From contig CAYVKP010000001.1 of assembly GCA_964452165.1 (NCBI GenBank), positions 204,110 through 268,109 of the forward strand: a stretch of DNA of 64,000 bases, in the 5' to 3' direction. The position numbers were made by a program, and so were the translations under genes. How positions within the stretch are numbered: the stretch's first letter is position 1; each line of letters starts with the position of its first letter. Shown here in pieces: positions 3,145 through 45,201 of the stretch. This DNA is from an uncultured Gammaproteobacteria bacterium. Its GTDB lineage: Bacteria; Patescibacteriota; Microgenomatia; Levybacterales; GWA1-39-11. A model generated the notes under the pieces. The model searched no databases. It saw only the letters and a program-made list of their open reading frames with translations, and was not told where the DNA came from.

Positions 3145-4035
3145 ATGGCTGAAAAAGATTTTTACCAAATTTTGGGAGTCGCCAAGACTGCGACACCGGA
3201 GGAGATGAAAAAAGCGTACAGAAAGCTTGCTCTTCAATACCACCCCGACCGCAACAAAACAAAAGAGGCGGAAGATAAATTTAAAGAGATCAACCGTGCT
3301 TATGAAGTTCTGTCCGATCCTAATAAGCGCCAACAGTATGATCAGTTTGGATCGGGAGCTTTTGAGGGTGGAGCAGGTCCTGGCGGGCCGTTTGGTGGGC
3401 AAACAGGGCGCCAAGGACCGTTTACTTACACTTATTCAACAGGGGGAGACCCCTTCGGAGCTCAGGGTGGGCAGGGATTTGATTTTAATTTTGGAGGATT
3501 TTCAGACCCCTTCGAAATATTTGAGCAATTCTTTGGCGGAGGGTCACCATTTGGAGGCCGCCGCAAACCTACATATTCTTTGACCATAGACTTTATGGAA
3601 GCGGTTAAAGGTACGGAAAAGAAGGTTACGATTGGGGGAACAGCAAAAACTATAAAAATCCCGGCCGGAATAGACGGCAACTCAAGAATCAGATTTGATG
3701 AGTTTGATATCCTTGTTGGAGTTCGTCCTCATCAAAAATTTGTTCGTGAAGGTCAGGATATTATTACAGAAGAGGAGATTTCAATGGTTCAGGCAGCCCT
3801 TGGTGACATAATTGATGTTGATACGGTTGATGGATCAGTGAAGCTAAAAATCCCTGAAGGAACTCAACCAAACGCATTAATTAGAATTAAAGGGCATGGA
3901 ATAGTCAGGGTTAATACTAAAAATAAAGGCGACCACTACGTGCGTATTAAAATTGAAATCCCCAAGAAATTGAAAGGTAAACAAAAGGCACTCCTTGAGG
4001 AGTTTGAAAAAGAAGGTAGCAAAGGCTGGTTCTAA
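3145..4035 (+). CDS. DnaJ-like J-domain co-chaperone, type II (no zinc-finger domain)
   Basis: J domain DFYQILGV...[14 protein letters not shown] with the HPD motif, a G/F-rich region and a DnaJ C-terminal domain. No CxxCxGxG repeats. Confidence 0.8.
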
Positions 4036-11853: not shown

Positions 11854-12372
11854 GTGTTTTGTAGAATAATTTTTATGGCGCAAGGAGAAAGAGGTTTGTT
11901 TTTGGGAGAAGATCCAGTAGAGGGACAGTCTTTTCAGAGAAAAGTAAGGCTTAGCAGCCATTTAGAAAGGGACTCTGAGATACACGGACAACAGGGTGTA
12001 TACAGGGGTCTTGATGGATCAATTGAAACACACCAGTTAAAGGTTGAAGAAACTCCAGACCAAAAACCTAAGGGATATGGGGGTTACAGCCGTGAAGTTC
12101 GCGACCAAATGAGAAGGGGCTCATACGAGTTGCAGCAAGTGGTCGGTGGTGGTGGAAAGCCTTCTTATATTGAAGTTAAGTTAGATCCCAGTGTTGACCG
12201 AAATCCTATACAGGGAAGTGAACTTGCTCAGGCGGAAACCGTAACGGAAGCAGGACAGGCCGATACACAAGTCGCACAAAGTTCGGCATCGGTCAGGTTA
12301 GTTCGGCCATCAGGACGGCAATTACCAACTCAGGGTCCTATAATGAGAGTTGCTCCAGCACCGGGAAGATAA
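11854..12372 (+). CDS. Low-complexity hypothetical ORF (possibly not protein-coding)
   Basis: 172-aa ORF rich in G/Q/R/E with no hydrophobic core. Local GC is higher than the flanks. No recognisable domain. Confidence 0.2.
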   Translation: MFCRIIFMAQGERGLFLGEDPVEGQSFQRKVRLSSHLERDSEIHGQQGVYRGLDGSIETHQLKVEETPDQKPKGYGGYSREVRDQMRRGSYELQQVVGGGGKPSYIEVKLDPSVDRNPIQGSELAQAETVTEAGQADTQVAQSSASVRLVRPSGRQLPTQGPIMRVAPAPGR

Positions 12373-13099: not shown

Positions 13100-13432
13100 T
13101 TACAGTATTGATCCACCGCTGTCTTCTCCCGCCTTGCGGGATCGCAGCCGGTCTCCCTCGTCCTTCGGACTCAGTCCGACCCACCTTGAAAGCGTTGGGA
13201 TTAACGTTTTTGCTAACTCCTCTGCTTCTGCTTGATCCATTTGTTGATCATCAATCATTCTGGCAGAGGATCTTCCTATCATCTCGGAAAGTTGTAGGTT
13301 GGGTTCACGGAACTGCCCCTGTTCAAAACAAAACTTGCAGTAAGTATCGCTTGCTGTTCCGTCGGCATTGGTTCCGTAAAATCCAACCCCCAGTGGCATT
13401 CCGCATGATTGGCATCTATTTTTTCCCTCCAT
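13100..13432 (-). CDS. Zinc-ribbon protein; C-terminal about 27 codons encoded by the GC-rich repeat element
   Basis: CQSCGMP...CKFCF C4 ribbon. ATG lies 3 nt after the upstream gene's stop. The C-terminal tail is encoded by the repeat at 13113-13183. Confidence 0.5.
   Translation of the reverse strand: MEGKNRCQSCGMPLGVGFYGTNADGTASDTYCKFCFEQGQFREPNLQLSEMIGRSSARMIDDQQMDQAEAEELAKTLIPTLSRWVGLSPKDEGDRLRSRKAGEDSGGSIL
13113..13183. repeat. GC-rich repeat element, copy A (conserved boxes CCACCGCTGTCTTC / CGCAGCCGGTCTCCCT / GTCCGACCC with two hairpins)
   Basis: Shares three sequence boxes with 44324-44392. Hairpins TCCCGC-CTT-GCGGGA (13127-13141) and GTCC-TTC-GGAC (13160-13170). Confidence 0.55.
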
Positions 13433-21775: not shown

Positions 21776-24700
21776 ATGCATAAGCTTAGGCGGGCTGCTC
21801 AAAAATTCCTAGTCTTTATAGCTTTTTTTGCCATGCTGGTTCAGTCTTTGAACCCGTTCTTGTACGTCTTACCTCAAGTAGCATATGCGCAAGAAGCAAC
21901 CGTTACACCAACCGATACTCCAAGTGATACACCAACGGTCACGCCAGACCAGAACCAGACAGTAACTCCGACCCCAACTCCAGCAGACTCAGTTACACCA
22001 ACTGACACCCCAACTCCAGCAGAAACCGTTACGCCAACTCCTGTTGGGGGAGATACTTCGACAGTTACACCAGACCAGACTCAACCCAACAACAATAGCC
22101 CGCCAAGTGGCCAGAGTGTTTCGGGTCAAAATAGTTCAAACAGCTCAAATAGCAACTCTCCAACTTCATCTATAACTCCCACGATAACGGTTGCTCCAAC
22201 TGTAACTCCAGCTCCTGATAAGGGGGAGGGCGGAAAAATAGGCGTAGCGGTTCTTAAAGATGTATCAGCCCCAAGCATTGATTTACAAGCAACAAATACG
22301 GATAGTTCCGCGACTTTGACAACAGACAAATCCGACTATGCACCAACAGATACAGCCTTAATTACCGGGTCTAATTTTTCTCCCAACAAGACTTATTCAT
22401 TAACTGTTAGTTCAAATGATGCTCCTGCAACCAGCACGACTGCTAACGTTACTACAAATGATAGCGGGTCATTCGTTTACGCCTATCAATTAGACGGAAA
22501 GTACAGACCAAACTATAAGGTCGAGGTTAAAGACGCTTCTGGAACAGTAGTTGCCTCAACAACATTTACAGATAGTGCAAGTGTAACAACCACAGTTAGT
22601 GGTGTTGCCTGTGTAGGTGACCAACCGGGGCAAAACGGTTTAGTATGTACTGCAAACGATATTAATCTTGCCTCTGTCTCACCCACCGTTACAATAAATG
22701 GGCATGGATGTAGATTCCCCGGAGATACAGTTAACTTTACGGCAAACTATCAAATTCAATCCAATGCAAACAATAGATACAACGCAGGAGTTTGGTTTGC
22801 AACAAATGGGCAGGCAAGTGCCTTGCATGGAACGTGTTCAGCAACTTCACTTCCAAGCACACCCAACCCTCCCTTTTTTGATGGTGGGACTTCATGTGGA
22901 GGTATTAATAAACCTGACATTGGAACAATTACTATCACTCAGACAGCAGTATGTAATCCCGACAGTAGTGGATTTCTCACGATTCCATACTGTACAACAT
23001 GGCAACAAAACTCAAATAACGCATGTACCACACCTACTGATACTGTACCCGGAACAGGCTCAAAATGTAATTGTCCAGCAGGTGGAATTGAAATCCCAAT
23101 AACTGTTCCTCCAGCAATAGAAGTTATAAAGTCTCTTTCACCATCAAATGACTCGGGACTATTTAATTTATTAGTTAATGCTATTACTAAAAAAACAGAC
23201 GCCACAAATGGTGGAACAACAGGAAAAGTTGGAGTAACAACCGGACAAAATACTTTTGGAGAAGCAAACGGAACAGGTACAAACTTAAGTAATTATGCTT
23301 CTGTTGCTTCATGTGTTTTAAGAGGAACTTCAACAACAGTAGCAATAACCGGAACTGGCCCAACTTGGACAATCACCAATGTAACTAACGGACAGGATAT
23401 AGTCTGTACGATTACCAATACTGCAAACAACGGAACAATCGAGCTTAAAAAAGTATGGTCCGGAACGGGAGGACAAACAACACTCACAATCGGATCAGCA
23501 ATCGGAGGCAATAACGTTGCCAACACACAGACAGGAGCAATCGGATCAGCACCTTTAACAACGGGTCCAAAAACGGTAAATAGCGGTAGTTATTATTTAA
23601 ATGAAACCGGAGGATTAACAAACTACACACCGTCTGCTCTTACTTGTTTCAATGATGCGAATAACGATGGAACAAATAATAACGGGGAGTCATCTGTTAG
23701 TGTCGGCGCAAGTAATGCGGTAGCAGTAAGCGCGAATCAACACGTCATTTGTTCTTTCACAAACACACGTGATCAGGGGACAATCGAGCTTAAAAAAGTA
23801 TGGTCCGGAACGGGAGGACAAACAACATTAAATATTGGAACATCAGCTGGAGGGACACAAACCGCAAGTGTTCAGACAGGAGCAAGCGGAGCAGCACCGC
23901 TCACAACCGGGACACAAACCGTTGATACCAATACTTACTATATTTCAGAAAATGGCGGATTAACGGATTACTCATCAGTTCTTGCTTGTACGGATAATGG
24001 AAGTACAGTAACACCGGGTGCAAATAACTCACTCAATGTTGCAAAGAATCATGCGGTTATTTGTACATTTACTAACACAAGAAATACCGGAACAATCAAA
24101 GTAATAAAAGACGTAGTGGCACCTAATGGGTCCCCAATTACCGATACTTCAACAAACTTTGCATTTTCGGTCGACGGCGGTTCTACGTTTGATTTAACTG
24201 ACGGAGGAAACCATTCAACAACTGTCATAACAGGAGCAAATCATACGGTTGTTGAAACGCCTAACGCAAATTACGACTTCGCAGGTTGTACAAGTGATTC
24301 CCAGACTCAGGGATCGGCCGTTGCTAACGGAATTGTTGTAACAGTTACAACTGGTACAACTTCAACTGTTACCTGTACTAACAAACAAAAGCATGCAAAG
24401 ATTACGGTCGTTAAAGTTGTCAAAGACGCAAGCGGAAAAGTAGTAAGTGATAGTAAAACATTTACAGTTCAATTAAATGGAGCAAGTGACGACTCTACGC
24501 TTTCCGATACTCATGATGTAGTCTACAATCCAAATCCTGGAACTTATACGGTAAGCGAAGCAAATGACGCAAATTACGATAATTTAGGATGTAAATTGAA
24601 TGCCGATCTTACTGCGACCAACTTTAGCTTGGCATCGAATCAATCTGTGACCGTTACATGTACCAATAAACAAAAACCTGGTTCAATTCTGGGAGTAAAA

Positions 24701-26581
24701 ACGGATGAAAACAACAATCTTCTACCAAATTGGACAATACAACTTGCTTCGTGTCTTGCAGGATTTACAAATTGTGTCGATGTTCTAGGAGCGGCAATCC
24801 CAACCGACAACAACGGAGCATATTTGTTCAGCAATTTAGTTACAGGATTTTACCAGGTGTACGAAATTATGCAGGCGGGTTGGACAAACGTTACCGCTCT
24901 TTTTCACAATGTTGAAATTCAGCCGGGAACAGTAAGTTCAAACAATAACTTCCAGAATAAAGGAAATCTGAGAATTACGGCTTGTAAATACGAGGATGCT
25001 GATGCTAATAATCAGACAACAGAAGATAGAACGCCGGTCAATAATTGGAGTTTTACACTCAGCGGTGAGCAACTCGGAGAAAATGTTACTCAGTCAGCAG
25101 GAGAAGAAAGCAATTGTACAACCTTTACGGATCTTAAACCCGGAGCCTATCAGGTTGATGAAAAATTGGCCAGTCACACGGACTGGTCTGTAGTAGACAA
25201 GAATGGAGATGTTCAGGACGTCACCCTTACAAATGAATCCACAACGGTTAATTTCTACAACTACCGAAAAGCTCATATTATTGTCAAGAAAGACGTAGTG
25301 AATCCTGATGGGGGCGTAGTTACTGATACAAGTACAAATTTTGACTTCAGAATTCACCAAGGCGGAGACATAGTTGAATCTTTCTCTTTGGTTGATGGCG
25401 CAACGAGTTCTACTTACGATGTTAATCCAGGCACTTACGATGTTAACGAAGTTCTAAACCATAGTAATTACTCGTTTGGTTCCTGTACTGCGGTTTATGA
25501 CGGTGAATCAATCGGCCGTCCTGTTACAGAAGAAGACGAATCAGGTGAGCAGGTAAGTCTTGATTCAAATGACACAGTGACGGTTACATGTATTAACAAG
25601 CAGAAAACGGGCAGGGTCCATGGATACAAATGGAACGATGAAAACGGGGACGGAAAACTAACTTGTACTGAAGGTGGCGAATTCCCAACATGTGAATCAA
25701 AACTATCTGATTGGACCATCTTTGTTGATTCAAATAACAATAAAACCCTCGATGAAGGAGAGCAATCGACTACAACCGACTCAAGTGGGAATTACTCTTT
25801 TACCCTTAATCCTGGGACCTACAATATTTGCGAAGTAGTAAAAACAGGTTGGGAGCAAACTTATCCGGGCTCAGGGGAAACTGCCTGTCACACCGTTACG
25901 ATAAGTTCAAATCAAAACTCTGAGCAAAGTCTTAACTTCGGAAATAAAAATGTGATTCCGGCATTCACAATTGCTAAAACCAATGACACAGAAGGAGCGA
26001 GCAAAGCACCGGGAGACGTAGTTAACTACACCCTGACATTAACGCTCGACGATACAAAGGGTCCCGGAGACAACATAACTGTTACCGACCTTCTTCCAAA
26101 GGGCTTTGTTTACAATGGAGGCTCATACCAAGCATTTCTCAATGGGAACCCAATATCAGTTGAAGAACCAACCTACCATTCACCGGGAACATGGACTCTT
26201 CCAAGCGCACAGCCGGGTGATGTATTTACATTAAAATACAAAGCAACTGTTGATAGCGGACAGCAATCAGGTACATATTATGACAATGCATGGGGACAAG
26301 GTACGCCTGTAGGAGATCCTTCAAGTACGATTCTTGCGCTCGCGGGTACAGATGGAAATATTGGTGATCCAAATTTTGTAGGAACACAAGTAAGCGTTTC
26401 AAAAGAAGATTCCCAATCGCCGTCTATTGCTAAAACCCAGGGCCAAGTTTTAGGTGCATCAACCGAGGCTCTGCCTTCAACAGGTGCAAACACATTTCAA
26501 ACAGCTCTGGGAATCATCGTACTTATTATAGGATTGAACTTATTACTTGTAGGCTTTATAATTCGCAAACGCTATGTTTAA
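21776..26581 (+). CDS. Giant (1601 aa) cell-surface adhesin-like protein with DUF11/Cna-B/SdrD-B-type repeats and C-terminal sortase signal
   Basis: Signal peptide. Pro/Thr-rich linker. Tandem repeats around GTIELKKVWSGTGGQTTL. SdrD-B-like segment KWNDENGDGKL...SDWTIFVDSNNNKTLDEGE. DUF11-like GDVVNYTLTLTL..GTYYDNAWG. C-terminus QVLGASTEALPSTGANTF, then a TM, then RKRYV. Confidence 0.8.
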   Translation: MHKLRRAAQKFLVFIAFFAMLVQSLNPFLYVLPQVAYAQEATVTPTDTPSDTPTVTPDQNQTVTPTPTPADSVTPTDTPTPAETVTPTPVGGDTSTVTPDQTQPNNNSPPSGQSVSGQNSSNSSNSNSPTSSITPTITVAPTVTPAPDKGEGGKIGVAVLKDVSAPSIDLQATNTDSSATLTTDKSDYAPTDTALITGSNFSPNKTYSLTVSSNDAPATSTTANVTTNDSGSFVYAYQLDGKYRPNYKVEVKDASGTVVASTTFTDSASVTTTVSGVACVGDQPGQNGLVCTANDINLASVSPTVTINGHGCRFPGDTVNFTANYQIQSNANNRYNAGVWFATNGQASALHGTCSATSLPSTPNPPFFDGGTSCGGINKPDIGTITITQTAVCNPDSSGFLTIPYCTTWQQNSNNACTTPTDTVPGTGSKCNCPAGGIEIPITVPPAIEVIKSLSPSNDSGLFNLLVNAITKKTDATNGGTTGKVGVTTGQNTFGEANGTGTNLSNYASVASCVLRGTSTTVAITGTGPTWTITNVTNGQDIVCTITNTANNGTIELKKVWSGTGGQTTLTIGSAIGGNNVANTQTGAIGSAPLTTGPKTVNSGSYYLNETGGLTNYTPSALTCFNDANNDGTNNNGESSVSVGASNAVAVSANQHVICSFTNTRDQGTIELKKVWSGTGGQTTLNIGTSAGGTQTASVQTGASGAAPLTTGTQTVDTNTYYISENGGLTDYSSVLACTDNGSTVTPGANNSLNVAKNHAVICTFTNTRNTGTIKVIKDVVAPNGSPITDTSTNFAFSVDGGSTFDLTDGGNHSTTVITGANHTVVETPNANYDFAGCTSDSQTQGSAVANGIVVTVTTGTTSTVTCTNKQKHAKITVVKVVKDASGKVVSDSKTFTVQLNGASDDSTLSDTHDVVYNPNPGTYTVSEANDANYDNLGCKLNADLTATNFSLASNQSVTVTCTNKQKPGSILGVKTDENNNLLPNWTIQLASCLAGFTNCVDVLGAAIPTDNNGAYLFSNLVTGFYQVYEIMQAGWTNVTALFHNVEIQPGTVSSNNNFQNKGNLRITACKYEDADANNQTTEDRTPVNNWSFTLSGEQLGENVTQSAGEESNCTTFTDLKPGAYQVDEKLASHTDWSVVDKNGDVQDVTLTNESTTVNFYNYRKAHIIVKKDVVNPDGGVVTDTSTNFDFRIHQGGDIVESFSLVDGATSSTYDVNPGTYDVNEVLNHSNYSFGSCTAVYDGESIGRPVTEEDESGEQVSLDSNDTVTVTCINKQKTGRVHGYKWNDENGDGKLTCTEGGEFPTCESKLSDWTIFVDSNNNKTLDEGEQSTTTDSSGNYSFTLNPGTYNICEVVKTGWEQTYPGSGETACHTVTISSNQNSEQSLNFGNKNVIPAFTIAKTNDTEGASKAPGDVVNYTLTLTLDDTKGPGDNITVTDLLPKGFVYNGGSYQAFLNGNPISVEEPTYHSPGTWTLPSAQPGDVFTLKYKATVDSGQQSGTYYDNAWGQGTPVGDPSSTILALAGTDGNIGDPNFVGTQVSVSKEDSQSPSIAKTQGQVLGASTEALPSTGANTFQTALGIIVLIIGLNLLLVGFIIRKRYV
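23431..24120 (+). repeat. Intragenic tandem domain repeats (about 345-bp period) within the adhesin gene
   Basis: Near-identical DNA acaatcgagcttaaaaaagtatggtccggaacgggaggacaaacaaca at about 23440 and about 23785. A third, diverged unit lies near 24080. Confidence 0.5.
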
Positions 26582-29819: not shown

Positions 29820-30101
29820 ATGAATAAAATTAAAAAAATAGCATTTGCAGGAGCAGCTTCTGCAATCATGCTTTCGAGTTTTGTAAGTGTAGCATTTGCG
29901 GTAACTCCAGGAGCTGCAGTAAAAAATCCAAATGCTAATTCAAACGCGTGTTGGGGTATGGATCGTTCTTTCTATGCGAGCCAAGGCTTTTTCCCTGAGA
30001 ATATGGACATTAAGCAGTCTTTTCCAGGTGATGTCGGTGAAGAACGTGCAGCTTGGGTTGCAACGTATTGTAGTTCACACGGGCCAGTCGTAGTAGAGTA
30101 G
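29820..30101 (+). CDS. Small secreted protein, hypothetical
   Basis: Strong RBS GGGGGGAGGTG. Signal peptide ends AFAVTP. Confidence 0.4.
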   Translation: MNKIKKIAFAGAASAIMLSSFVSVAFAVTPGAAVKNPNANSNACWGMDRSFYASQGFFPENMDIKQSFPGDVGEERAAWVATYCSSHGPVVVE

Positions 30102-30199
30102 AAAATAGAAGATTTGTTTTAAACAGCCCAAAGGGGTAATTCCCTGCGGGTTGTTTTGGTTGACAAATTTACAAAGGAGCTATATGATTCTATCTGTTA

Positions 30200-30961
30200 A
30201 TGAAAAAGTTTCTTGGAGTGATACTCGGATTTTTCCTCGTCCTCACAATTGTTTTTGCAGTCTCAGCGCAAAGTTCAAACGCAAATATTCCTGATCGCGA
30301 CGGTGATTTTCCGGATCCTGACCACCCCGGAATTCGCGTTCGCGTATTTGTGCACAATCCAAAAGATGCACGAGGATCATCAGACCTTACGCCCGCTACT
30401 TGTTCCCCAGATAATGACTCTGCAACCGTAGATGGTGTTACAGGGTGGAAACTTCCTTCAACAAATTGGAATTACAGAGTAAATAGCGCAAGTGCTCCAT
30501 CTGGAGTCGGAGGAAATGCCGTTACGATTACAAATAATGCTTTCGCAGCTTGGACAGGCGCTTTATCTCCCGCTTCAAGCAAGCCGACATTTTCATACGC
30601 AGGACCAACGTCTGTCAATAAAAACGTTTACGACGGACAGAACATAGTTGCTTGGGGACACACATCAGGTAGCGCTCTGGCCGTAACTTACACAAGATAC
30701 AATCAATCAACCGGGGTTGTTGTTGACGTTGACACAATTTTTAATAGCAAGTTTGCGTGGACATGGAATACATGCTCGGCAAGTGCTTATGATGCCCAGG
30801 ATATCTTGACGCACGAACTAGGACACTGGATGGGACTGGACGACAACTACGCGGCAAGTTTTGCGGATAACACAATGTATGGTTACGGGGCAAAAGCCGA
30901 GAACAAAAAGGACACTCCTGCAACAGGCGATAAAAACGCCCTCCTCACAATTTATCATTAA
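30200..30961 (+). CDS. Secreted metzincin-like zinc metallopeptidase with HEXXHXXGXXD motif (snapalysin/M7-like)
   Basis: Signal peptide. HELGHWMGLDD zinc-binding motif with Asp as the third ligand. Downstream Met-turn-like NTMYGY. Confidence 0.6.
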   Translation: MKKFLGVILGFFLVLTIVFAVSAQSSNANIPDRDGDFPDPDHPGIRVRVFVHNPKDARGSSDLTPATCSPDNDSATVDGVTGWKLPSTNWNYRVNSASAPSGVGGNAVTITNNAFAAWTGALSPASSKPTFSYAGPTSVNKNVYDGQNIVAWGHTSGSALAVTYTRYNQSTGVVVDVDTIFNSKFAWTWNTCSASAYDAQDILTHELGHWMGLDDNYAASFADNTMYGYGAKAENKKDTPATGDKNALLTIYH

Positions 30962-31168
30962 TTGTACTGGTAGAATTTTGCTTCATAACGAAAAAAAGCC
31001 CGAAAGAAATAGTTGTTGATGAATGCGTTATGAAAACGCGGAGAACAGCGCACGCTGCTCAAATTCACCAACCGTTCAATCAGTCGGGCTCTTTTTCTTG
31101 CCTTCACTTCGGGCGGCTACAACTTTTTAGGCTGCGCTTTGCTCGAAGTTATTCGATTGTTTGTGAGA

Positions 31169-31447
31169 TCAGTAGATGTTATCTCGACAGATCTCGTCTT
31201 TGCCGGCTAGGATTAGCGCGCCTACTTCCTCTTGGCGGTCTGATCCCTTGTGTTCAATCTCGGTCAACCTAACGTAGATGCTGGCCGAAGTCACTCGAGG
31301 GTCGTCTTCAATGACGGCTATTGCTAGTAGCGCGTTCTTGTCCATGCCGGTCGAAATGGTTACGATATCTCCTCGCCGGAGAATGTGGAGACAATCTCCA
31401 ACTCGTTCCAGTGAAGGAAAGGGTGCTGTCACCCAGGGAGATGCCAT
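31169..31447 (-). CDS. Island ORF 7 (92 aa), hypothetical
   Basis: Last ORF of the minus-strand series; GC-rich codon usage. Confidence 0.35.
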   Translation of the reverse strand: MASPWVTAPFPSLERVGDCLHILRRGDIVTISTGMDKNALLAIAVIEDDPRVTSASIYVRLTEIEHKGSDRQEEVGALILAGKDEICRDNIY

Positions 31448-31486
31448 AGCTTGCTCCTTCCGAAGCTTGTGGCGCGCTGGCCGTTA

Positions 31487-31831
31487 CTAGAGATACAGTT
31501 CAACCGCTCTCTGATGAGAGTGGTCGGGAACGAACGTACCTGCGACGCGGGGGGGTGCCGGCGCAAAATAGTCGATCTGGTACATGTTGGAACATGACAG
31601 GTAGGTGATGCCGCAAAGCACACCTGATTTGTCAGCTCTTCTAAGCCAGAGTGTTTGATCAGGCCAGACTTCGGCTGTGATGACGAAGTCAGCAAGTTCA
31701 CTACCACTATCAAGCATGGCACCATCGTTGGTGACAAAACCGAGGATCTCGTCTTCGGGGACCTGGAAGTGTTCACAGATCGCCTCAATGAGCTCAAGGG
31801 TCATGTCTACGTCGTTCGTTGTCCTGTACAT
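31487..31831 (-). CDS. Island ORF 6 (114 aa), hypothetical
   Basis: Consistent spacing within the operon; acidic protein. Confidence 0.35.
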   Translation of the reverse strand: MYRTTNDVDMTLELIEAICEHFQVPEDEILGFVTNDGAMLDSGSELADFVITAEVWPDQTLWLRRADKSGVLCGITYLSCSNMYQIDYFAPAPPRVAGTFVPDHSHQRAVELYL

Positions 31832-31958
31832 TGGCTTTCCTTCTCATGGGGATAATCATCCAGCTTAGCCACTGCTGAATGATGGCGGGGCTTGATTAGG
31901 CGACGGGGTACCCAATCAGGTCATTCGTAACTCCTTTCTGATGTTCGTCGTCACGAAC

Positions 31959-32156
31959 TTATCGGGAAACGTCCCAGTCTGGGTTGTTTCCACCAGCAAT
32001 ACGCCCATGTTTATGGGAAATCTTGCAGGCTGAGCAGAGCGTTATTGTCTCTCCGTAGATCTCTGAGCACTCCTTACACACGTTAGTTGTCTTGTTCCCG
32101 CAGAATGTGCAGAAGTACACACGCGGAATCAATCCGAAGAGTGGCATCAGGTTCAC
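31959..32156 (-). CDS. Island ORF 5, small zinc-ribbon protein (three CxxC pairs)
   Basis: CTFCGN..CKEC..CSAC. Confidence 0.4.
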   Translation of the reverse strand: MNLMPLFGLIPRVYFCTFCGNKTTNVCKECSEIYGETITLCSACKISHKHGRIAGGNNPDWDVSR

Positions 32157-32183
32157 TTCCTGTCTGGTGAAGGCGCGCCTTCG

Positions 32184-32729
32184 TTACTCAGTGGCTGTGT
32201 TGCCCTGGTAGACGTTGTAGTGCTCGGTGGCCTTGATAAACTTATCACCGGCAGACGGACCTTGCGGGCACCTGTGCACAATGATGAGCTGGCCGCTCTT
32301 GTGACAATCCCGTGCATCCCGGCGAGTCAAACTTGTACTCCAGGTGCAGTGGATTGCGTCACAGTCACACTCCTTCTCGACCTCCTGCGAGAGGAAATCG
32401 TTAATCAGCGCTGTGCTGATGAAGCCTCCACCGTCGTCCTCGATGAGTCGCCAGAATTCTCTGCAAGCATCATCGTGGTCGAAACAGTAACCGAAGTAGA
32501 AGAGTACTTCAACATTCGCGTCGGCTGGACTAGTTTCGTATTTGATTTCGGCCTCATCGAGCATTGCTCGAATTCCTTCAGCCGAAACTTGGTTCGCCGT
32601 AAGTCTGAGGCAGTTGTAAGTGCCCATGGGTATTTCCGAAGCATCGTGACAGAGGAAGCATTTCATTTCCCCGTCCCATATGTACTCCGGATACACCAGT
32701 AGTTCGCCCTCTGCGAATCTTCGTGCCAT
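32184..32729 (-). CDS. Island ORF 4, Cys/His-rich protein, hypothetical
   Basis: CFLCH, CFDHDDAC, ECDCDAIHC, DCH, HRC clusters suggest metal binding. Confidence 0.4.
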   Translation of the reverse strand: MARRFAEGELLVYPEYIWDGEMKCFLCHDASEIPMGTYNCLRLTANQVSAEGIRAMLDEAEIKYETSPADANVEVLFYFGYCFDHDDACREFWRLIEDDGGGFISTALINDFLSQEVEKECDCDAIHCTWSTSLTRRDARDCHKSGQLIIVHRCPQGPSAGDKFIKATEHYNVYQGNTATE

Positions 32730-32777
32730 CGTGGCTACTCCTCCCTATGAAGGCGCGCTGGCCCCCGTTACCTGCCG

Positions 32778-33320
32778 TTACTTGACGCTGAAGAACGCCC
32801 AGAGGATGTCTCCGAAGCGATGCGCGCATCTAACGTTAATGCACTCACCAGGTGACATCTTCGCGGCGATGTCTGCGTCCGTCGAGATCTGGTAGAAGAG
32901 CTTGTACTCGCCGGGTTTGACGGGTACCTTGAGTGGAATCGTAATGTTGCCCTTTCCACCTGGCTTAAGCGCCGGGACAGACACAGAGGCGTCCGAGATC
33001 TGCTTGAGATCTGGTTTACTTCCGTCAGTCGCGGCCGATTCGCCATAGACGCGGACGAGCTTGTAGTCGCCGGTCCAGGTTGTTGTGCCGCAATTGGTCA
33101 CTTCCCAGACTTTGTCTTGGGTTGATCCCGCTGCCAGCGTCTGCCACTTGTCGGGAGTGTCCTCGATGGTGACATCCCTGACGAACTTCATGCAGTCCTC
33201 GAGCTTGGCGGTCGCAGAGGATGTTGGTTTGTCTTTGGGACTGTACCATGCAGCCCACGCAACAACAACTCCCAAGATACATAGAAGCAGGAGAGTTACG
33301 ACAGTCTGCTGCCTGATCAT
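32778..33320 (-). CDS. Island ORF 3, membrane-anchored Ig/CARDB-like beta-sandwich protein
   Basis: N-terminal signal anchor VVTLLLLCILGVVVAWAAW. Segment VWEVTNCGTTTW...SVPALKPGGKGNITIPLKVPVKPGEYKLFYQI resembles CARDB/NBR1-like folds. Confidence 0.4.
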   Translation of the reverse strand: MIRQQTVVTLLLLCILGVVVAWAAWYSPKDKPTSSATAKLEDCMKFVRDVTIEDTPDKWQTLAAGSTQDKVWEVTNCGTTTWTGDYKLVRVYGESAATDGSKPDLKQISDASVSVPALKPGGKGNITIPLKVPVKPGEYKLFYQISTDADIAAKMSPGECINVRCAHRFGDILWAFFSVK

Positions 33321-33362
33321 CTTGTTGCTCCTTTCGAGCAGACTCGTGAGACCCGCGTCTCG

Positions 33363-33947
33363 TTACCCTCCGAATAGCACGGTGGCGGAGAAGAGGTCTC
33401 CACGCTGGAGAACTCTTCTGGATATTGCCTGTACATCTTCGCCGTTGAGGCGGCAGTTGCCCAGGCCGAACTCAAGTCCGAGTTCCTTAGTAAGATGCTT
33501 GACCAGTTCGTTGACGGTTTTGCCTGCGTAGGGCACCATCAAGGGGTCAAACGGTTGATCGCCGATGTCAAGTGTGACCACGATGTCGTTGGGGCCGGTA
33601 GACCGCAATATGGTCACTTCTTTTCTCAAATCGGCGACGGCTTGCTCGCGCTCTTCAGGCGAAAGGTTGTTCGCGGGTTTGCGCTCAACGCTCATATTGA
33701 AGTACGGCAGCACTTCACCGAGCTCCTCATTACCAGGGACGTCCTCGCCTCGCGAGGTGAAAGTCATGGTTCCAGCCAGACGCACAGAGTAGGCACCACC
33801 GCGGACAATCATGTCCTCGGTTACTTCTAGGGTGTCTCCGGCTTCTGGAATCTTGTCAACCCGCAGGACGGCGCTGTATATGTTGGCGCCTATTGCGATG
33901 TAGACAGGTTTCTTTTCAGGTTGATGACGTTTTCCGAACAGTTTCAC
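33363..33947 (-). CDS. Island ORF 2, protein with C-terminal ThiS/MoaD-like ubiquitin-fold domain ending in Gly-Gly (possible tandem beta-grasp)
   Basis: C-terminus ...CRLNGEDVQAISRRVLQRGDLFSATVLFGG followed directly by a stop. The pattern N-x-E-x-V...L..GD.....GG matches ThiS/MoaD. An N-terminal segment also ends ...GDTLEV..MIVRGG. Confidence 0.45.
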   Translation of the reverse strand: MKLFGKRHQPEKKPVYIAIGANIYSAVLRVDKIPEAGDTLEVTEDMIVRGGAYSVRLAGTMTFTSRGEDVPGNEELGEVLPYFNMSVERKPANNLSPEEREQAVADLRKEVTILRSTGPNDIVVTLDIGDQPFDPLMVPYAGKTVNELVKHLTKELGLEFGLGNCRLNGEDVQAISRRVLQRGDLFSATVLFGG

Positions 33948-33959
33948 TTCCGACCTCCG

Positions 33960-34289
33960 TTACTTGTTGAGAGTTGCGACCCACTTGATAGTGACGCCGC
34001 GGTTGGTGTCGGGGAATACGGTTACCCGGTTTTCCTCGATAAGAATTCGCCAACCGAATTTGTACTGCCATGCGCCGGCCAAGTCGTGGACCGTGAATGC
34101 AGTATTGTCCTTGCCTCCCATCACAACGTATGGGGGAAAGAGTCGTCTGTGTTCATCGCGAAGATTGCTCACGTCGTCGTGGAACGACTCAAACGTGAAC
34201 TCTCCAAGCCCGAACACTTGTTGGAAGCGGTTAGCATACCTCGGAGCGTTCTCCGGGGTGAGAACTATACCTTGTGCTTGGGTTGTCAT
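33960..34289 (-). CDS. Island ORF 1 (109 aa), hypothetical
   Basis: First gene of the operon, preceded by a strong SD. No recognisable motif. Confidence 0.35.
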   Translation of the reverse strand: MTTQAQGIVLTPENAPRYANRFQQVFGLGEFTFESFHDDVSNLRDEHRRLFPPYVVMGGKDNTAFTVHDLAGAWQYKFGWRILIEENRVTVFPDTNRGVTIKWVATLNK

Positions 34290-34339
34290 GTCTCCTCCTC
34301 CATCTTTCTTTCCAGCTTATGCTGATGAATTTAGTTTCG

Positions 34340-42668: not shown

Positions 42669-44324
42669 ATGGATACAGTTTCATATATTTCACTTGGCGG
42701 AGTTGGAGGCGTTACAAAAAACATGCATATGTATGTCTTTGGACGCGAGATTCTTCTGGTGGATTGCGGCATAGGTTTTGTAGATGACTCAATGCCGGGA
42801 GTTGATCTTTCTATTCCCAACATTTCATATCTAAAACAACAAATTGCAGCGGGAAAAAGAATTGTTGGAATGATGCTCTCACACGGTCACGAAGATCATA
42901 TTGGAGCGCTGCCCTTTATATTGCCTCAGTTACCACAATTTCCGGTTTACGGAACCACCTTAACCGCAGCTTTAGCAAATGAAAAACTTGCAGAATTCGG
43001 TGGTAAAACTCGTGTTCAGACAATTAGATTTAACGATATGCTTCGTCTTGGTGCGTTTAATGTATCGGTTGCCAGAATGACGCATTCAATAATGGATACT
43101 TCAAATATTTTCATTAAGACTCCAATAGGTAATTTTTATCATGGTAGCGATTTTAAGTTTGATTTCACACCGGTGGATGGGAAACCATCAGAAATTAGGA
43201 AAATAGCAAAATGGGGAGAAGAAGGAATCTTGTGTACGATGTCAGATTGTCTTGGCGCAGAACGCACGGGACATTCAAAGTCAGAATTGAATATTACAGA
43301 AAGTTTTGATGATGAATTCAGGCGTTCTCGTGGGAAAATTTTTGTTACCACTTATTCTTCAAATCTTTCGCGTATGAATCAGGCAATTGAGGTAGCAAAA
43401 AAATACAACAGACGCGTTTGTTTTATCGGTAGATCATTTCTTAAGGTTCGTGATGTTGGAAGAAAGCTTAAATATATGGATTTGCCTCCAAAAATGGAGA
43501 TCAAGCCGCAGGAGGTAAGAAGAATGAATCCGGCAAACGTTTTAATACTTCTTGCGGGTAGTCAGGGTCAGGAAGAATCGGGCTTATCAAGGATTGCACA
43601 AGACCAAGATCGTGACATCAGGATTGCGCGTGGAGATACGGTCATATTCTCAGCAGATCCAATTCCCGGAAACGAGATCAATATCACTTCTCTAATCGAT
43701 ACAATTTCAAAAAAAGATGTCAGAGTTGTTTATTCGCAGCTAACCGACGAATTTCATGTTTCAGGACACGGTTCTCAAAACGACCTAAAGCTTCTGATTT
43801 CTTTAACCAACCCCAGATTCTTGTTGCCGATTGGTGGTAATTACAAACACATGGTGGCTTACGAGAAGATGGCGGCTGAGATGGGTTACACAAATGACAA
43901 GGTAATTTTTGCAGATGAGGCAAGGGAGATAATTTTTTCCCAAAGTGGATTCCGAGTGGGTAAATCTCTTTCACCCTCAAATGTATATGTGGACCAAGTA
44001 TCAAAGGGACAAATTGACAGTTATATAATTATGGATCGTAAGAAAATAGCCGAGGAGGGAGTGATTATAATAATTTCTGAAATAAATTCTGCGACTGGGC
44101 AGATAACAGCGCCAGTAGATGTCATTGCGCATGGCGTAAATTTTGATAACAAAGATGAATTTGTTCGTAACATGGGAATTGAGCTGGATAAGGTTTTTTC
44201 GCGAAGAAAAGAAAAAGTAACTAATTGGGGATTTTACAGAAAGACCATTCAACAAAGAGCCGAACAAATGCTGTATGACGAGGGTAGAGAGCCGCTTATA
44301 GTACCCGTAGTGTTGGAAGTTTAA
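42669..44324 (+). CDS. rnj: Ribonuclease J (metallo-beta-lactamase/beta-CASP)
   Basis: MLSHGHEDHIGALP motif, beta-CASP and C-terminal domain. Confidence 0.9.
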   Translation: MDTVSYISLGGVGGVTKNMHMYVFGREILLVDCGIGFVDDSMPGVDLSIPNISYLKQQIAAGKRIVGMMLSHGHEDHIGALPFILPQLPQFPVYGTTLTAALANEKLAEFGGKTRVQTIRFNDMLRLGAFNVSVARMTHSIMDTSNIFIKTPIGNFYHGSDFKFDFTPVDGKPSEIRKIAKWGEEGILCTMSDCLGAERTGHSKSELNITESFDDEFRRSRGKIFVTTYSSNLSRMNQAIEVAKKYNRRVCFIGRSFLKVRDVGRKLKYMDLPPKMEIKPQEVRRMNPANVLILLAGSQGQEESGLSRIAQDQDRDIRIARGDTVIFSADPIPGNEINITSLIDTISKKDVRVVYSQLTDEFHVSGHGSQNDLKLLISLTNPRFLLPIGGNYKHMVAYEKMAAEMGYTNDKVIFADEAREIIFSQSGFRVGKSLSPSNVYVDQVSKGQIDSYIIMDRKKIAEEGVIIIISEINSATGQITAPVDVIAHGVNFDNKDEFVRNMGIELDKVFSRRKEKVTNWGFYRKTIQQRAEQMLYDEGREPLIVPVVLEV

Positions 44325-44412
44325 TTCCGCCACCGCTGTCTTCGGACTTCGTCCTCGCAGCCGGTCTCCCTTCGCTTCGCGATCGGTCCGACCCCGTAGT
44401 GTTGGAAGTTTA
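44324..44412. repeat. GC-rich repeat element copy B (about 69 nt) flanked by a 20-bp direct duplication (cccgtagtgttggaagttta at 44304-44323 and 44393-44412)
   Basis: Boxes CCACCGCTGTCTTC / CGCAGCCGGTCTCCCT / GGTCCGACC are shared with 13113-13183. Hairpins GGAC-TTC-GTCC and TCGC-TTC-GCGA. The duplication supplies stop codons for both convergent genes. Confidence 0.55.
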
Positions 44413-45201
44413 GCTGCTTCTGTCTTTCTTCAGCTTGTTTACCCAAGTTTTATAGCTTGCTTCAATTTTTCTTACTACAGTTTTTGGCTCTTGTTTAATC
44501 AGCTCACTTACTTCAAGTGGAGGAGCAAATGTGACCTTAATAGGAGTTAATAACTTAGCCGCATGAGGAATAAAGCGAAGATAGTCGAAATTTGACGTAC
44601 CTTCAATATATGCTCTTACAACATAAACTTTCTTTTTAGTTTTTATGCCATGGAGTAAATATCCAACACCCGAATACCATTTTTTGTTTTCATCTTTGCT
44701 AGGATTTGGAAAAATAACGACAGATCCTCCTTCGGACACTTTTCTGGCTGCATTATTTATACTTTCGATATTCTTTTTATGCTCTTGCGCCGGACTATAC
44801 GTTGGGACCGGGTGAAATTTTTTAAGAAACTTTTCTCTCAGTTTTTCACCCTTTTGAATATCTACGTGGTGCTCGACATAAACGGGAATCAGATATTTAT
44901 CCGCATTTGGAGCCAAATTCATAAATCTTGAACTAATAATGAGAGATGAGCTTTCCCTTGGGGGGAGAGCCGCAAAAAGCGCGATTATATCTACCTCGTG
45001 AGGGTGATTTGCAACAACTACCACAGACTCATCCTTTAATACATGATTAACTTTGTCAGTCCTTCCTTTGACAATAAGTTTGCTTTTGGAGCGGGTAACC
45101 GTATTCATCATGGCCTGTTGTAGACCGAATTTTTTGACGTCACGGTTAATGGTGCGCACAAAAGGCTTGATAACGGGGAATCTTGTAATTTGCGACTGCA
45201 T
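44410..45201 (-). CDS. Lysophospholipid (1-acylglycerol-3-phosphate) acyltransferase family protein (PlsC-like)
   Basis: HX4D motif VVVANHPHEVD; motif-III-like VIFPNPSKDE. Confidence 0.5.
   Translation of the reverse strand: MQSQITRFPVIKPFVRTINRDVKKFGLQQAMMNTVTRSKSKLIVKGRTDKVNHVLKDESVVVVANHPHEVDIIALFAALPPRESSSLIISSRFMNLAPNADKYLIPVYVEHHVDIQKGEKLREKFLKKFHPVPTYSPAQEHKKNIESINNAARKVSEGGSVVIFPNPSKDENKKWYSGVGYLLHGIKTKKKVYVVRAYIEGTSNFDYLRFIPHAAKLLTPIKVTFAPPLEVSELIKQEPKTVVRKIEASYKTWVNKLKKDRSS

Follow-up and report, generated by a model that had tools for sequence, protein, structure and literature searches.

The window, by which the whole 64 kb stretch of DNA analysed here is meant, is a piece of cellular genome with a GC content of ~41%, and its genes include those for RNase J, FtsK, MetK, MsrB and a Lon-like protein. 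The named closest relatives of its RNase J belong to Candidatus Levybacteria/Patescibacteria. No tRNA gene was found in the window, and no Rfam family matched within it at the gathering score. Three further features were recorded. A purine-rich ORF of 172 aa without a Pfam match (11854-12372, plus strand) lies in an intergenic gap of ~580 nt and has a GC content of 0.45-0.52 against ~0.35; it may encode a low-complexity protein or be an RNA that is not annotated. At ~30000-34300 there is a GC island (0.48-0.54 against ~0.40), possibly foreign DNA, whose ORFs are mostly without Pfam matches, a zincin-like peptidase and an N_BRCA1_IG domain protein being the exceptions. A surface protein is the probable identity of the 1601-aa product of 21776-26581 (plus strand), which has internal repeats of ~345 nt and linkers rich in Thr and Pro.

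Two copies of a small GC-rich element lie on the minus strand of the window: copy A in the 3′ end of a zinc-ribbon gene, and copy B between the convergent genes for RNase J and an acyltransferase (Table 1). A sequence-only reading of the window had located both, and both are present at those places, with cores of 70 and 65 nt, respectively; the range that it gave for the second copy does not correspond to the conserved core but to exactly the 69 nt that were inserted. The three boxes that it listed as common to the two copies, CCACCGCTGTCTTC, TCGCAGCCGGTCTCCCT and GTCCGACCC, were recovered as exact matches in both. In the window, the 14-mer CCACCGCTGTCTTC occurs exactly twice, and the 17-mer TCGCAGCCGGTCTCCCT was observed twice against 0.07 occurrences expected, even when up to three mismatches were allowed; GTCCGACCC was found in copy A and in copy B. 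The four hairpins were also found as described, the copies differing by paired changes. Copy A, with a GC content of 60%, forms an island within DNA of 32-42% GC.

Table 1. Positions of the two window copies, their hairpins and the features that surround them.
Feature	Position	Strand	Details
Copy A host gene, Zn_ribbon_2 protein, 110 aa	13100..13432	-	ORF; PF12674
Copy A conserved core	13113..13182	-	exact boxes; nhmmer E = 2.6e-12; row WA of structural alignment A5
Copy A sense-strand layout		-	GGGUCGGACUGA-hp2-GAGGGAGACCGGCUGCGA-hp1-GAAGACAGCGGUGG
Copy A apical hairpin hp1	13127..13141	-	UCCCGC-AAG-GCGGGA, 6 bp; inverted repeat; covaries (helix 4)
Copy A apical hairpin hp2	13160..13170	-	GUCC-GAA-GGAC, 4 bp; helix 2
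RNase J ORF	42669-44324
Left duplication copy	44304..44323	.	CCCGTAGTGTTGGAAGTTTA; last six RNase J codons and two stop bases
Copy B full insert, 69 nt	44324..44392	-	sense GUCGGACC...GCGGUGGCGGAAU; absent from ortholog L039
Copy B conserved core, 65 nt	44330..44394	-	boxes; nhmmer E = 2.4e-13; row WB of A5
Copy B hairpin hp1	44344..44354	-	sense GGAC-GAA-GUCC
Copy B hairpin hp2	44372..44382	-	sense UCGC-GAA-GCGA
Right duplication copy	44393..44412	.	overlaps acyltransferase stop 44410-44412 (-)
Convergent acyltransferase gene	44410-45201	-	PF01553

Homologues of the zinc-ribbon protein (137 at E ≤ 0.001, aligned over 66-84%, mostly 76%, of the query) are typically 85-92 aa long and stop 0-16 residues, mostly 2-5, past the invariant Trp84. 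The exceptions are the window protein, which continues for 26 residues past Trp84 (codon 13181-13183), and its closest homologue, P0002 (71% identical), with the C-terminus RWVGGSPRHD. It had been proposed that the element supplies the last ~27 codons and the stop of the window protein; the core does encode 23 of the 26 tail codons, but the stop is outside it, and the last three codons together with the stop (13100-13111) may be native. The syntenic orthologue on contig L033 is empty and reads ...AAAAGATGG AATAAAAGCATTTAA; no target duplication was detectable in the flanks of copy A. By this comparison, copy A is an insertion and more than a motif embedded in the gene. In L033 (3240-3290) the insertion point directly follows the 5′ arm of an inverted repeat of 8 bp, CUUAAAAG ... 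CUUUUAAG, with the arms ~25 nt apart; in AT-rich DNA this repeat may be due to chance.

Copy B is an insertion with a 20-nt target duplication. A single direct repeat, CCCGTAGTGTTGGAAGTTTA, flanks it with 20 of 20 positions identical and encloses 69 nt, which gives a start-to-start spacing of 89 (20 + 69). On contig L039, where RNase J is 86% identical, the site is empty: the sequence is present once (...GTACCAGTTATTTTGGAAGTTTAAC...), there is no element, and the RNase J gene and the convergent acyltransferase gene abut stop-to-stop (3660-3700). Both genes in the window keep their ends because the target duplication copied them. The empty orthologous sites and the 20-nt duplication at copy B show that the two window copies are insertions. 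Before insertion, the RNase J and acyltransferase genes of the window would have overlapped by ~4 nt; the duplication now sets them 85 nt apart with both C-termini preserved. In another close relative (L037; RNase J 86% identical) the acyltransferase is absent, and two genes of the 23S_rRNA_IVP family flank an HTH gene downstream of ftsK (L037, 10139-11586), where the window is without them.

Beyond the window, seven further distinct copies were obtained (L001, L008, L010, L014, L019, L022 and L036), so that the element, with nine distinct copies in all, is not limited to the pair from which it was first described. Identical copies were present in five more contigs (L032 and L043-L046). A two-box pattern gave eight matches in species-representative genomes, of which two were genuine (L001 and L008, from one 40%-GC MAG) and the other six chance matches in high-GC DNA; the metagenome scan gave 23 matches, four of them genuine (L010, from a Levybacteria MAG, L014, L019 and L022). 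All genuine matches carry box parts that lay outside the search pattern, namely GTCCGACCC and the CCACC head. The ninth copy, L036, is diverged and was found without any DNA pattern, by way of the zinc-ribbon homologue P0002; its contig carries UGGGUCGGAGGGAGUCCACGGCACGACUGAGACCGGCUGCGAACAAAGUUCGACAGCGGUGGCG at the position matching copy A. Six of the nine copies were thus found by patterns that needed two boxes exact, and the conservation of the boxes is partly ascertainment because the scans demanded exact boxes. The L022 copy is identical in four other contigs, from 3-4 other samples; being identical, these relatives carry no evolutionary information, and the identical copies in five contigs from different samples show that the element is fixed in a population.

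Outside the window, copies were found in at least six other organisms or populations. Copy number is low, with two copies in the 64 kb window and none in ~30 kb from close relatives, and nhmmer with --max revealed no more, or more diverged, copies in the window or in the Patescibacteria loci examined. Collections of viral, phage and plasmid sequences held no copy (no matches, or chance matches in high-GC DNA). ORFs that read through the element were sought with a peptide profile (WVGLS..EGDRLRS..EDSGG), which gave no match, and the element was in none of the zinc-ribbon homologues with unusually long C-termini. The copies form a family of ~60-75 nt in Candidatus Levybacteria and related low-GC Patescibacteria. 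The family is apparently undescribed; no report of small interspersed repeats in Patescibacteria was found in the literature searched.

All nine copies fit one structure, read on the minus strand of the window, which consists of two adjacent hairpins, each with G.A-rich internal loops. The 5′ part of the sense consensus is G-GUC GGA NN GA [hairpin 2] GA N'N' GA GACC; the 3′ part is a linker G, GCUGC GA [hairpin 1] GA A G(A)CAGC, and then GGUGG. Pairs were counted on an N-padded alignment, the register of which was left intact by MAFFT. For the nine copies, standard pairs filled 99.4% of the 157 cells, 10 of the 24 pairs showed changes on both sides, none of 500 shuffles reached any observed measure, and pairing fell to 24-54% when the partners were slid by 1-3 columns; the apical stems were aligned by hand, and this favours them. 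The compensatory hairpin changes that the sequence-only reading had taken as a sign of selected secondary structure are borne out by these values.

That reading had missed a covarying 2-bp helix and the tandem G.A motifs. The helix, NN/N'N', lies at fixed offsets from the invariant boxes and is formed by CU/GG, CU/AG, UU/AG or CC/GG, and by GG/CU in L036. Also in L036, the GA...GA dinucleotides beside hairpin 1 are replaced by Watson-Crick GA/UC; the dinucleotides therefore face each other, and tandem G.A pairs are predicted in the other copies. Such tandem G.A motifs are typical protein-binding features. Because six cells hold G.U and none holds A.C, the folded strand is the sense strand (window minus). 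The basal helices GGUC/GACC and GCUGC/G(A)CAGC vary in no copy and hence give no covariation signal; the invariant boxes are these predicted basal helices together with the G.A-rich internal loops, and the apical stems vary while pairing is kept. The apical loops are mostly GAA or G-N-N-A. Single-copy folding energies were unremarkable (z = -0.8 to -2.6). A classical kink-turn was considered on the sequence alone and rejected: tandem GA/GA lies next to each apical hairpin, but with the extra nucleotides on the opposite strand, and the loops of hairpin 1 measure 0-1 nt against 1-2 nt. In both window copies, and not in the others, one apical hairpin arm (GGAC/GUCC) could also pair with the conserved 5′ box UCGGAC(U), in an alternative helix of 6-7 bp (13165-13179; 44342-44347/44386-44391).

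Copy A and the L036 copy occupy matching positions in related genes. Between the window and L036, the zinc-ribbon genes share 68% DNA identity, 46% identity at third positions and 10 of 24 fourfold sites, and the empty L033 gene is no more distant from either; in the elements, 33 box positions are identical and the hairpins are not. Either two similar elements struck this one site, or strong constraint has preserved an old insertion; on both readings, the boxes are selected somewhere.

The contexts of the copies were compared at their junctions. The 5′ junction is host ...GG^GUC in all nine copies, with UGG in seven of them and often A-R-N-U-G-G, a motif that fits both the tRNA D-loop consensus and the AGR-UGG of the zinc-ribbon gene. 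The 3′ end GGUGG-NN-GAAY is shared by four copies (copy B, L036, L008 and L014). Wherever a locus is unambiguous, the sense strand runs with transcription, as given by the flanking tRNAs or the ORF that is ended. Replication as the determinant of orientation was rejected, the GC skew of the sense strand being mixed across loci. The L019 copy replaces the end of L15 (rplO) just before secY, inside the operon, and the L022 copy ends a DUF5652 protein beside a convergent gene. A 7-nt repeat near L022, CCGCUCC, was rejected as a target duplication, its second copy being part of the coding region of the convergent gene. The 20-nt repeat at copy B is the one unambiguous target duplication; candidate eroded duplications were picked by eye at L010 (12/14; UGAUGAAAUGGGUC/UGACAAAUGGGUC), L001 (~14/21) and L036 (11/16), and these could be chance.

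Four of the nine copies (L001, L008, L010 and L014) lie within tRNA gene arrays, on the tRNA strand. They directly follow a sequence resembling the acceptor and the 5′ part of the D-loop of a tRNA, and the element begins right after G18-G19. The 5′ flanks, for example GGGCCGG-UG-GCGC-AAUGG and GCGGGUG-UG-GUUC-AAUGG, resemble tRNA positions 1-19, and those of L001, L008 and L014 match U8, G9, G10, A14, R15, Y16, G18 and G19. Closing stems of 7-8 bp at L008 and L010 (7/7 pairs) are weakly significant (p about 0.06-0.1 each); a closing stem is not significant in L001 and L014 and is absent in the window copies. L010 ends in GCCA. ARAGORN and the Rfam tRNA models found the neighbouring tRNAs and no cloverleaf at the element loci. 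Identity as tRNA or tmRNA was rejected, as ARAGORN runs with introns, relaxed scores and core deletions returned spurious calls that borrowed a neighbouring tRNA. Deletion of the core does not restore a tRNA, and there is too little 3′ sequence for a simple insertion into an intact tRNA. At L001 (1600-1655, plus strand), the element and tRNA-Cys are separated by a further GC-rich block, CCCGGAGGGCGCGGGAGUCUGUCCCGAUAGAAUCGGG, of which the first 21 nt are like the tRNA-like 5′ flank and the end is a T-arm-like hairpin with the loop AUAGAAU.

Short related sequences at non-anticodon positions, including the D-loop, of several tRNA genes per genome are known as the mobile non-canonical tRNA introns of Thermoproteales, which have a bulge-helix-bulge and reside in intact, functional archaeal tRNA genes. 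The present copies are alike in being short related sequences at the D-loop position; they differ in that the host is bacterial, that core deletion restores no tRNA and that copies also lie in protein-coding genes.

Known classes of element and structured RNA were tested in turn. With a 69-nt insert that has no coding capacity of its own, the element is within the size of MITEs (<500 bp), and copy B has the flanking direct repeats; a strict MITE was rejected because terminal inverted repeats are missing, a repeat search of both window copies and their flanks having shown only the internal hairpins. An intrinsic terminator (hairpin and U-tract) was rejected: there is no terminator-like site at either window copy, and L019 is mid-operon. 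The features against a REP were the two hairpins, the core without a GTAG head and the presence of just two copies in 64 kb. The R''/L''...L'/R' boxes of an integron attC, ending in GTTRRRY, are absent from both window copies. For the variable region or IMH of a DGR, a retron, a bridge RNA, a TIGR array and a box C/D RNA, the motifs, their order or the context did not fit, and the same misfit was apparent from sequence for SRP RNA, hammerhead and hairpin ribozymes and the cobalamin B12 box; Rfam was silent for all of these. In permissive searches of Rfam 15, nothing relevant appeared at E ≤ 10 around the window copies, L014, L019 and L036, or at E ≤ 1 for L001 and L008. Among the ORFs neighbouring the copies, Pfam detected no transposase, integrase or reverse transcriptase, the genes being housekeeping genes only; ten uncharacterised window ORFs searched against Pfam included no transposase, and none of the other window ORFs was transposase-like by inspection of the first residues. 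No A-rich 3′ tail was seen.

The reading that we favour, with moderate confidence, is a non-autonomous mobile insertion element whose two-hairpin, G.A-loop fold is under selection. The conserved fold is probably a recognition surface for trans-acting machinery: such machinery, or a host protein, would recognise the conserved loops and copy the element to new sites, and these sites would follow an A-R-N-U-G-G-like motif. tRNA D-loops offer a motif of this kind, and the occurrence of the element in tRNA arrays would be explained in this way. Only those insertions would survive that fall at the very 3′ end of a gene or in a tRNA copy that can be spared. An RNA-templated or widely staggered-nick route would be likelier than classical DDE cut-and-paste, and is preferred over both DDE and HUH chemistry because of the long, apparently variable duplication, the lack of inverted repeats and the ...GG^GUC junction combined with co-orientation with transcription. 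This preference is an inference drawn from a single clean duplication plus some eroded candidates; RNA mediation is a possibility. The mobile-element model leaves one main point unexplained, the tRNA-array copies: these may have arisen when the element entered the D-loops of spare tRNA genes that then underwent deletion, or they may be a functional source RNA.

By behaviour, and as compared by properties only, the closest analogues of such a mobile element are the Rickettsia palindromic elements (RPEs), followed by REPs and MITEs. RPEs are ~150 bp long, with 44 reported in one genome, and insert into unrelated protein-coding genes, where they are read through in frame and add a peptide (PMC10969869). 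Both kinds are small structured repeats in host-dependent bacteria with reduced genomes, with no linked mobilising gene; the present element differs in its length of 60-75 nt, its high GC content in AT-rich DNA, its low copy number, its confinement to last codons or gene ends and also tRNA arrays, and its 20-nt target duplication. MITEs (Correia, ERIC, QMITE) have terminal inverted repeats of ~4-30 bp and are typically AT-rich; their flanking direct repeats fade with age (7-9 bp for the QMITE2 duplication), and they are often co-transcribed and can alter transcripts (PMC10969869). The likeness lies in short non-autonomous insertions with flanking direct repeats, and the difference in the absent terminal inverted repeats, the high GC content and a duplication of 20 nt, longer than that of QMITE2.

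The strongest competitor, although we hold it to be unlikely, is a host-serving cis-acting RNA module: a site of binding or processing, by a ribonuclease or an L7Ae-like protein for example, that is kept for stabilising or processing the upstream RNA (mRNA 3′ ends, tRNA precursors) and whose dispersal is incidental. The constant orientation with transcription and the location at ORF ends or within tRNA arrays agree with such a role, as do the G.U pairs that mark the transcribed strand, the tandem G.A motifs typical of protein binding, the tolerance of the L019 copy within the essential rplO-secY operon and the identity of the boxes despite saturated synonymous divergence of the host genes. Most orthologues of every host gene, however, are without the element, and no host gene therefore depends on it. 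These genes are functionally unrelated, native C-termini have been overwritten, there is no terminator-like tail, and the target duplication shows that the element arrived by insertion.

The tRNA-array copies permit two bolder readings. One, for which we see little likelihood, is that the element is a tRNA-associated, RNA-mediated retroposon with a new mode of mobility, or else a tRNA-framed structured RNA with the conserved core as its central domain. As a retroposon, the two-hairpin RNA would be converted to DNA where a nick leaves a ...GG 3′ end; this end would pair with the ...CC(A) of a complementary RNA, or the cDNA would end on the 5′ GUC of the RNA, with long staggered target duplications and preferential hits in tRNA D-loops. 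The other, which we judge improbable, is a small RNA gene embedded in a tRNA, a unit of acceptor and D-loop 5′ part, two-hairpin domain and 3′ acceptor strand released by RNase P/Z, with dispersed retro-copies of its central domain; the window copies would then have been reverse-transcribed or template-switched. For an embedded gene speak the four of nine copies that lie in tRNA arrays in phase with the neighbouring tRNAs, the tRNA-like 5′ flanks of L001, L008 and L014, the closing stems of L008 and L010 and the GCCA end of L010. The shared 3′ end of copy B, L036, L008 and L014 resembles the 3′ strand of a D-stem, and priming on an RNA that ends in ...CC(A) would fit the ...GG junction, the length of the duplication and the lack of inverted repeats. 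The closing stems are, however, individually weak and absent in L001 and L014, ARAGORN and Rfam give no cloverleaf even with the core deleted, no reverse transcriptase was seen near any copy, an A-rich tail is lacking, and D-loops may just match the target motif.

An embedded gene with dispersed retro-copies would be an analogue of the tRNA-derived SINEs of eukaryotes, which are short and non-autonomous, have no inverted repeats, long variable duplications and a tRNA link, and insert in one orientation from an RNA copy. In anatomy the present element is alike in its tRNA link, long duplication and lack of inverted repeats. It differs in its bacterial host, in having neither an A-rich or LINE-derived tail nor an identified partner reverse transcriptase, and in that the tRNA-like part is found only in the tRNA-array copies and not in the dispersed ones.

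REPs are small GC-rich hairpin repeats at gene ends that are transcribed with the upstream gene; they are single imperfect palindromes with a GTAG head, present in tens to hundreds of copies and without target duplication. The present element shares with REPs and BIMEs the small GC-rich hairpins at gene ends and differs in its two hairpins, conserved G.A loops, variable stems and duplication. A single-stranded DNA hairpin element of the REP/RAYT or IS200/IS605-derived kind, recognised and moved by an HUH (Y1) transposase during replication, is very improbable. Strand-specific hairpins, small size, location at gene ends and the lack of inverted terminal repeats would suit such an element, as would the many C-GAA-G and G-N-N-A loops and the tandem G.A mismatches, all of which have very high stability in DNA. 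No target duplication accompanies the insertion of HUH elements, whereas copy B has one of 20 nt; the hairpins of HUH elements are conserved in sequence, being read by the enzyme, but the present hairpins vary and it is the loops and bases that are conserved. Further points against it are the missing GTAG head, an orientation independent of GC skew across loci and the absence of a TnpA/RAYT gene nearby. A chance resemblance, or a single local duplication that has no function, could appeal to the two copies in 64 kb and the modest single-copy z-scores, but is already refuted by the excess of the 17-mer, the copies in other organisms or populations and the covariation, and we give it practically no weight.

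Patescibacteria have tiny genomes. The mobile element favoured here fails the tests for a MITE, a REP and a terminator and is nevertheless inserted with a 20-nt duplication and retains a fold that covaries, which points to an uncatalogued mechanism of mobilisation or recognition; the ...GG^GUC junction and the D-loop position in tRNA-like genes provide a concrete target rule. SINE-like spread, if true, would be a mode not described in bacteria and a rare bacterial analogue of SINE retroposition. The element remodels the C-termini of proteins (the zinc-ribbon protein, L15 and the DUF5652 protein) and can separate overlapping convergent genes, and in this way contributes on a small scale to the variation of proteins and operons among these symbionts.
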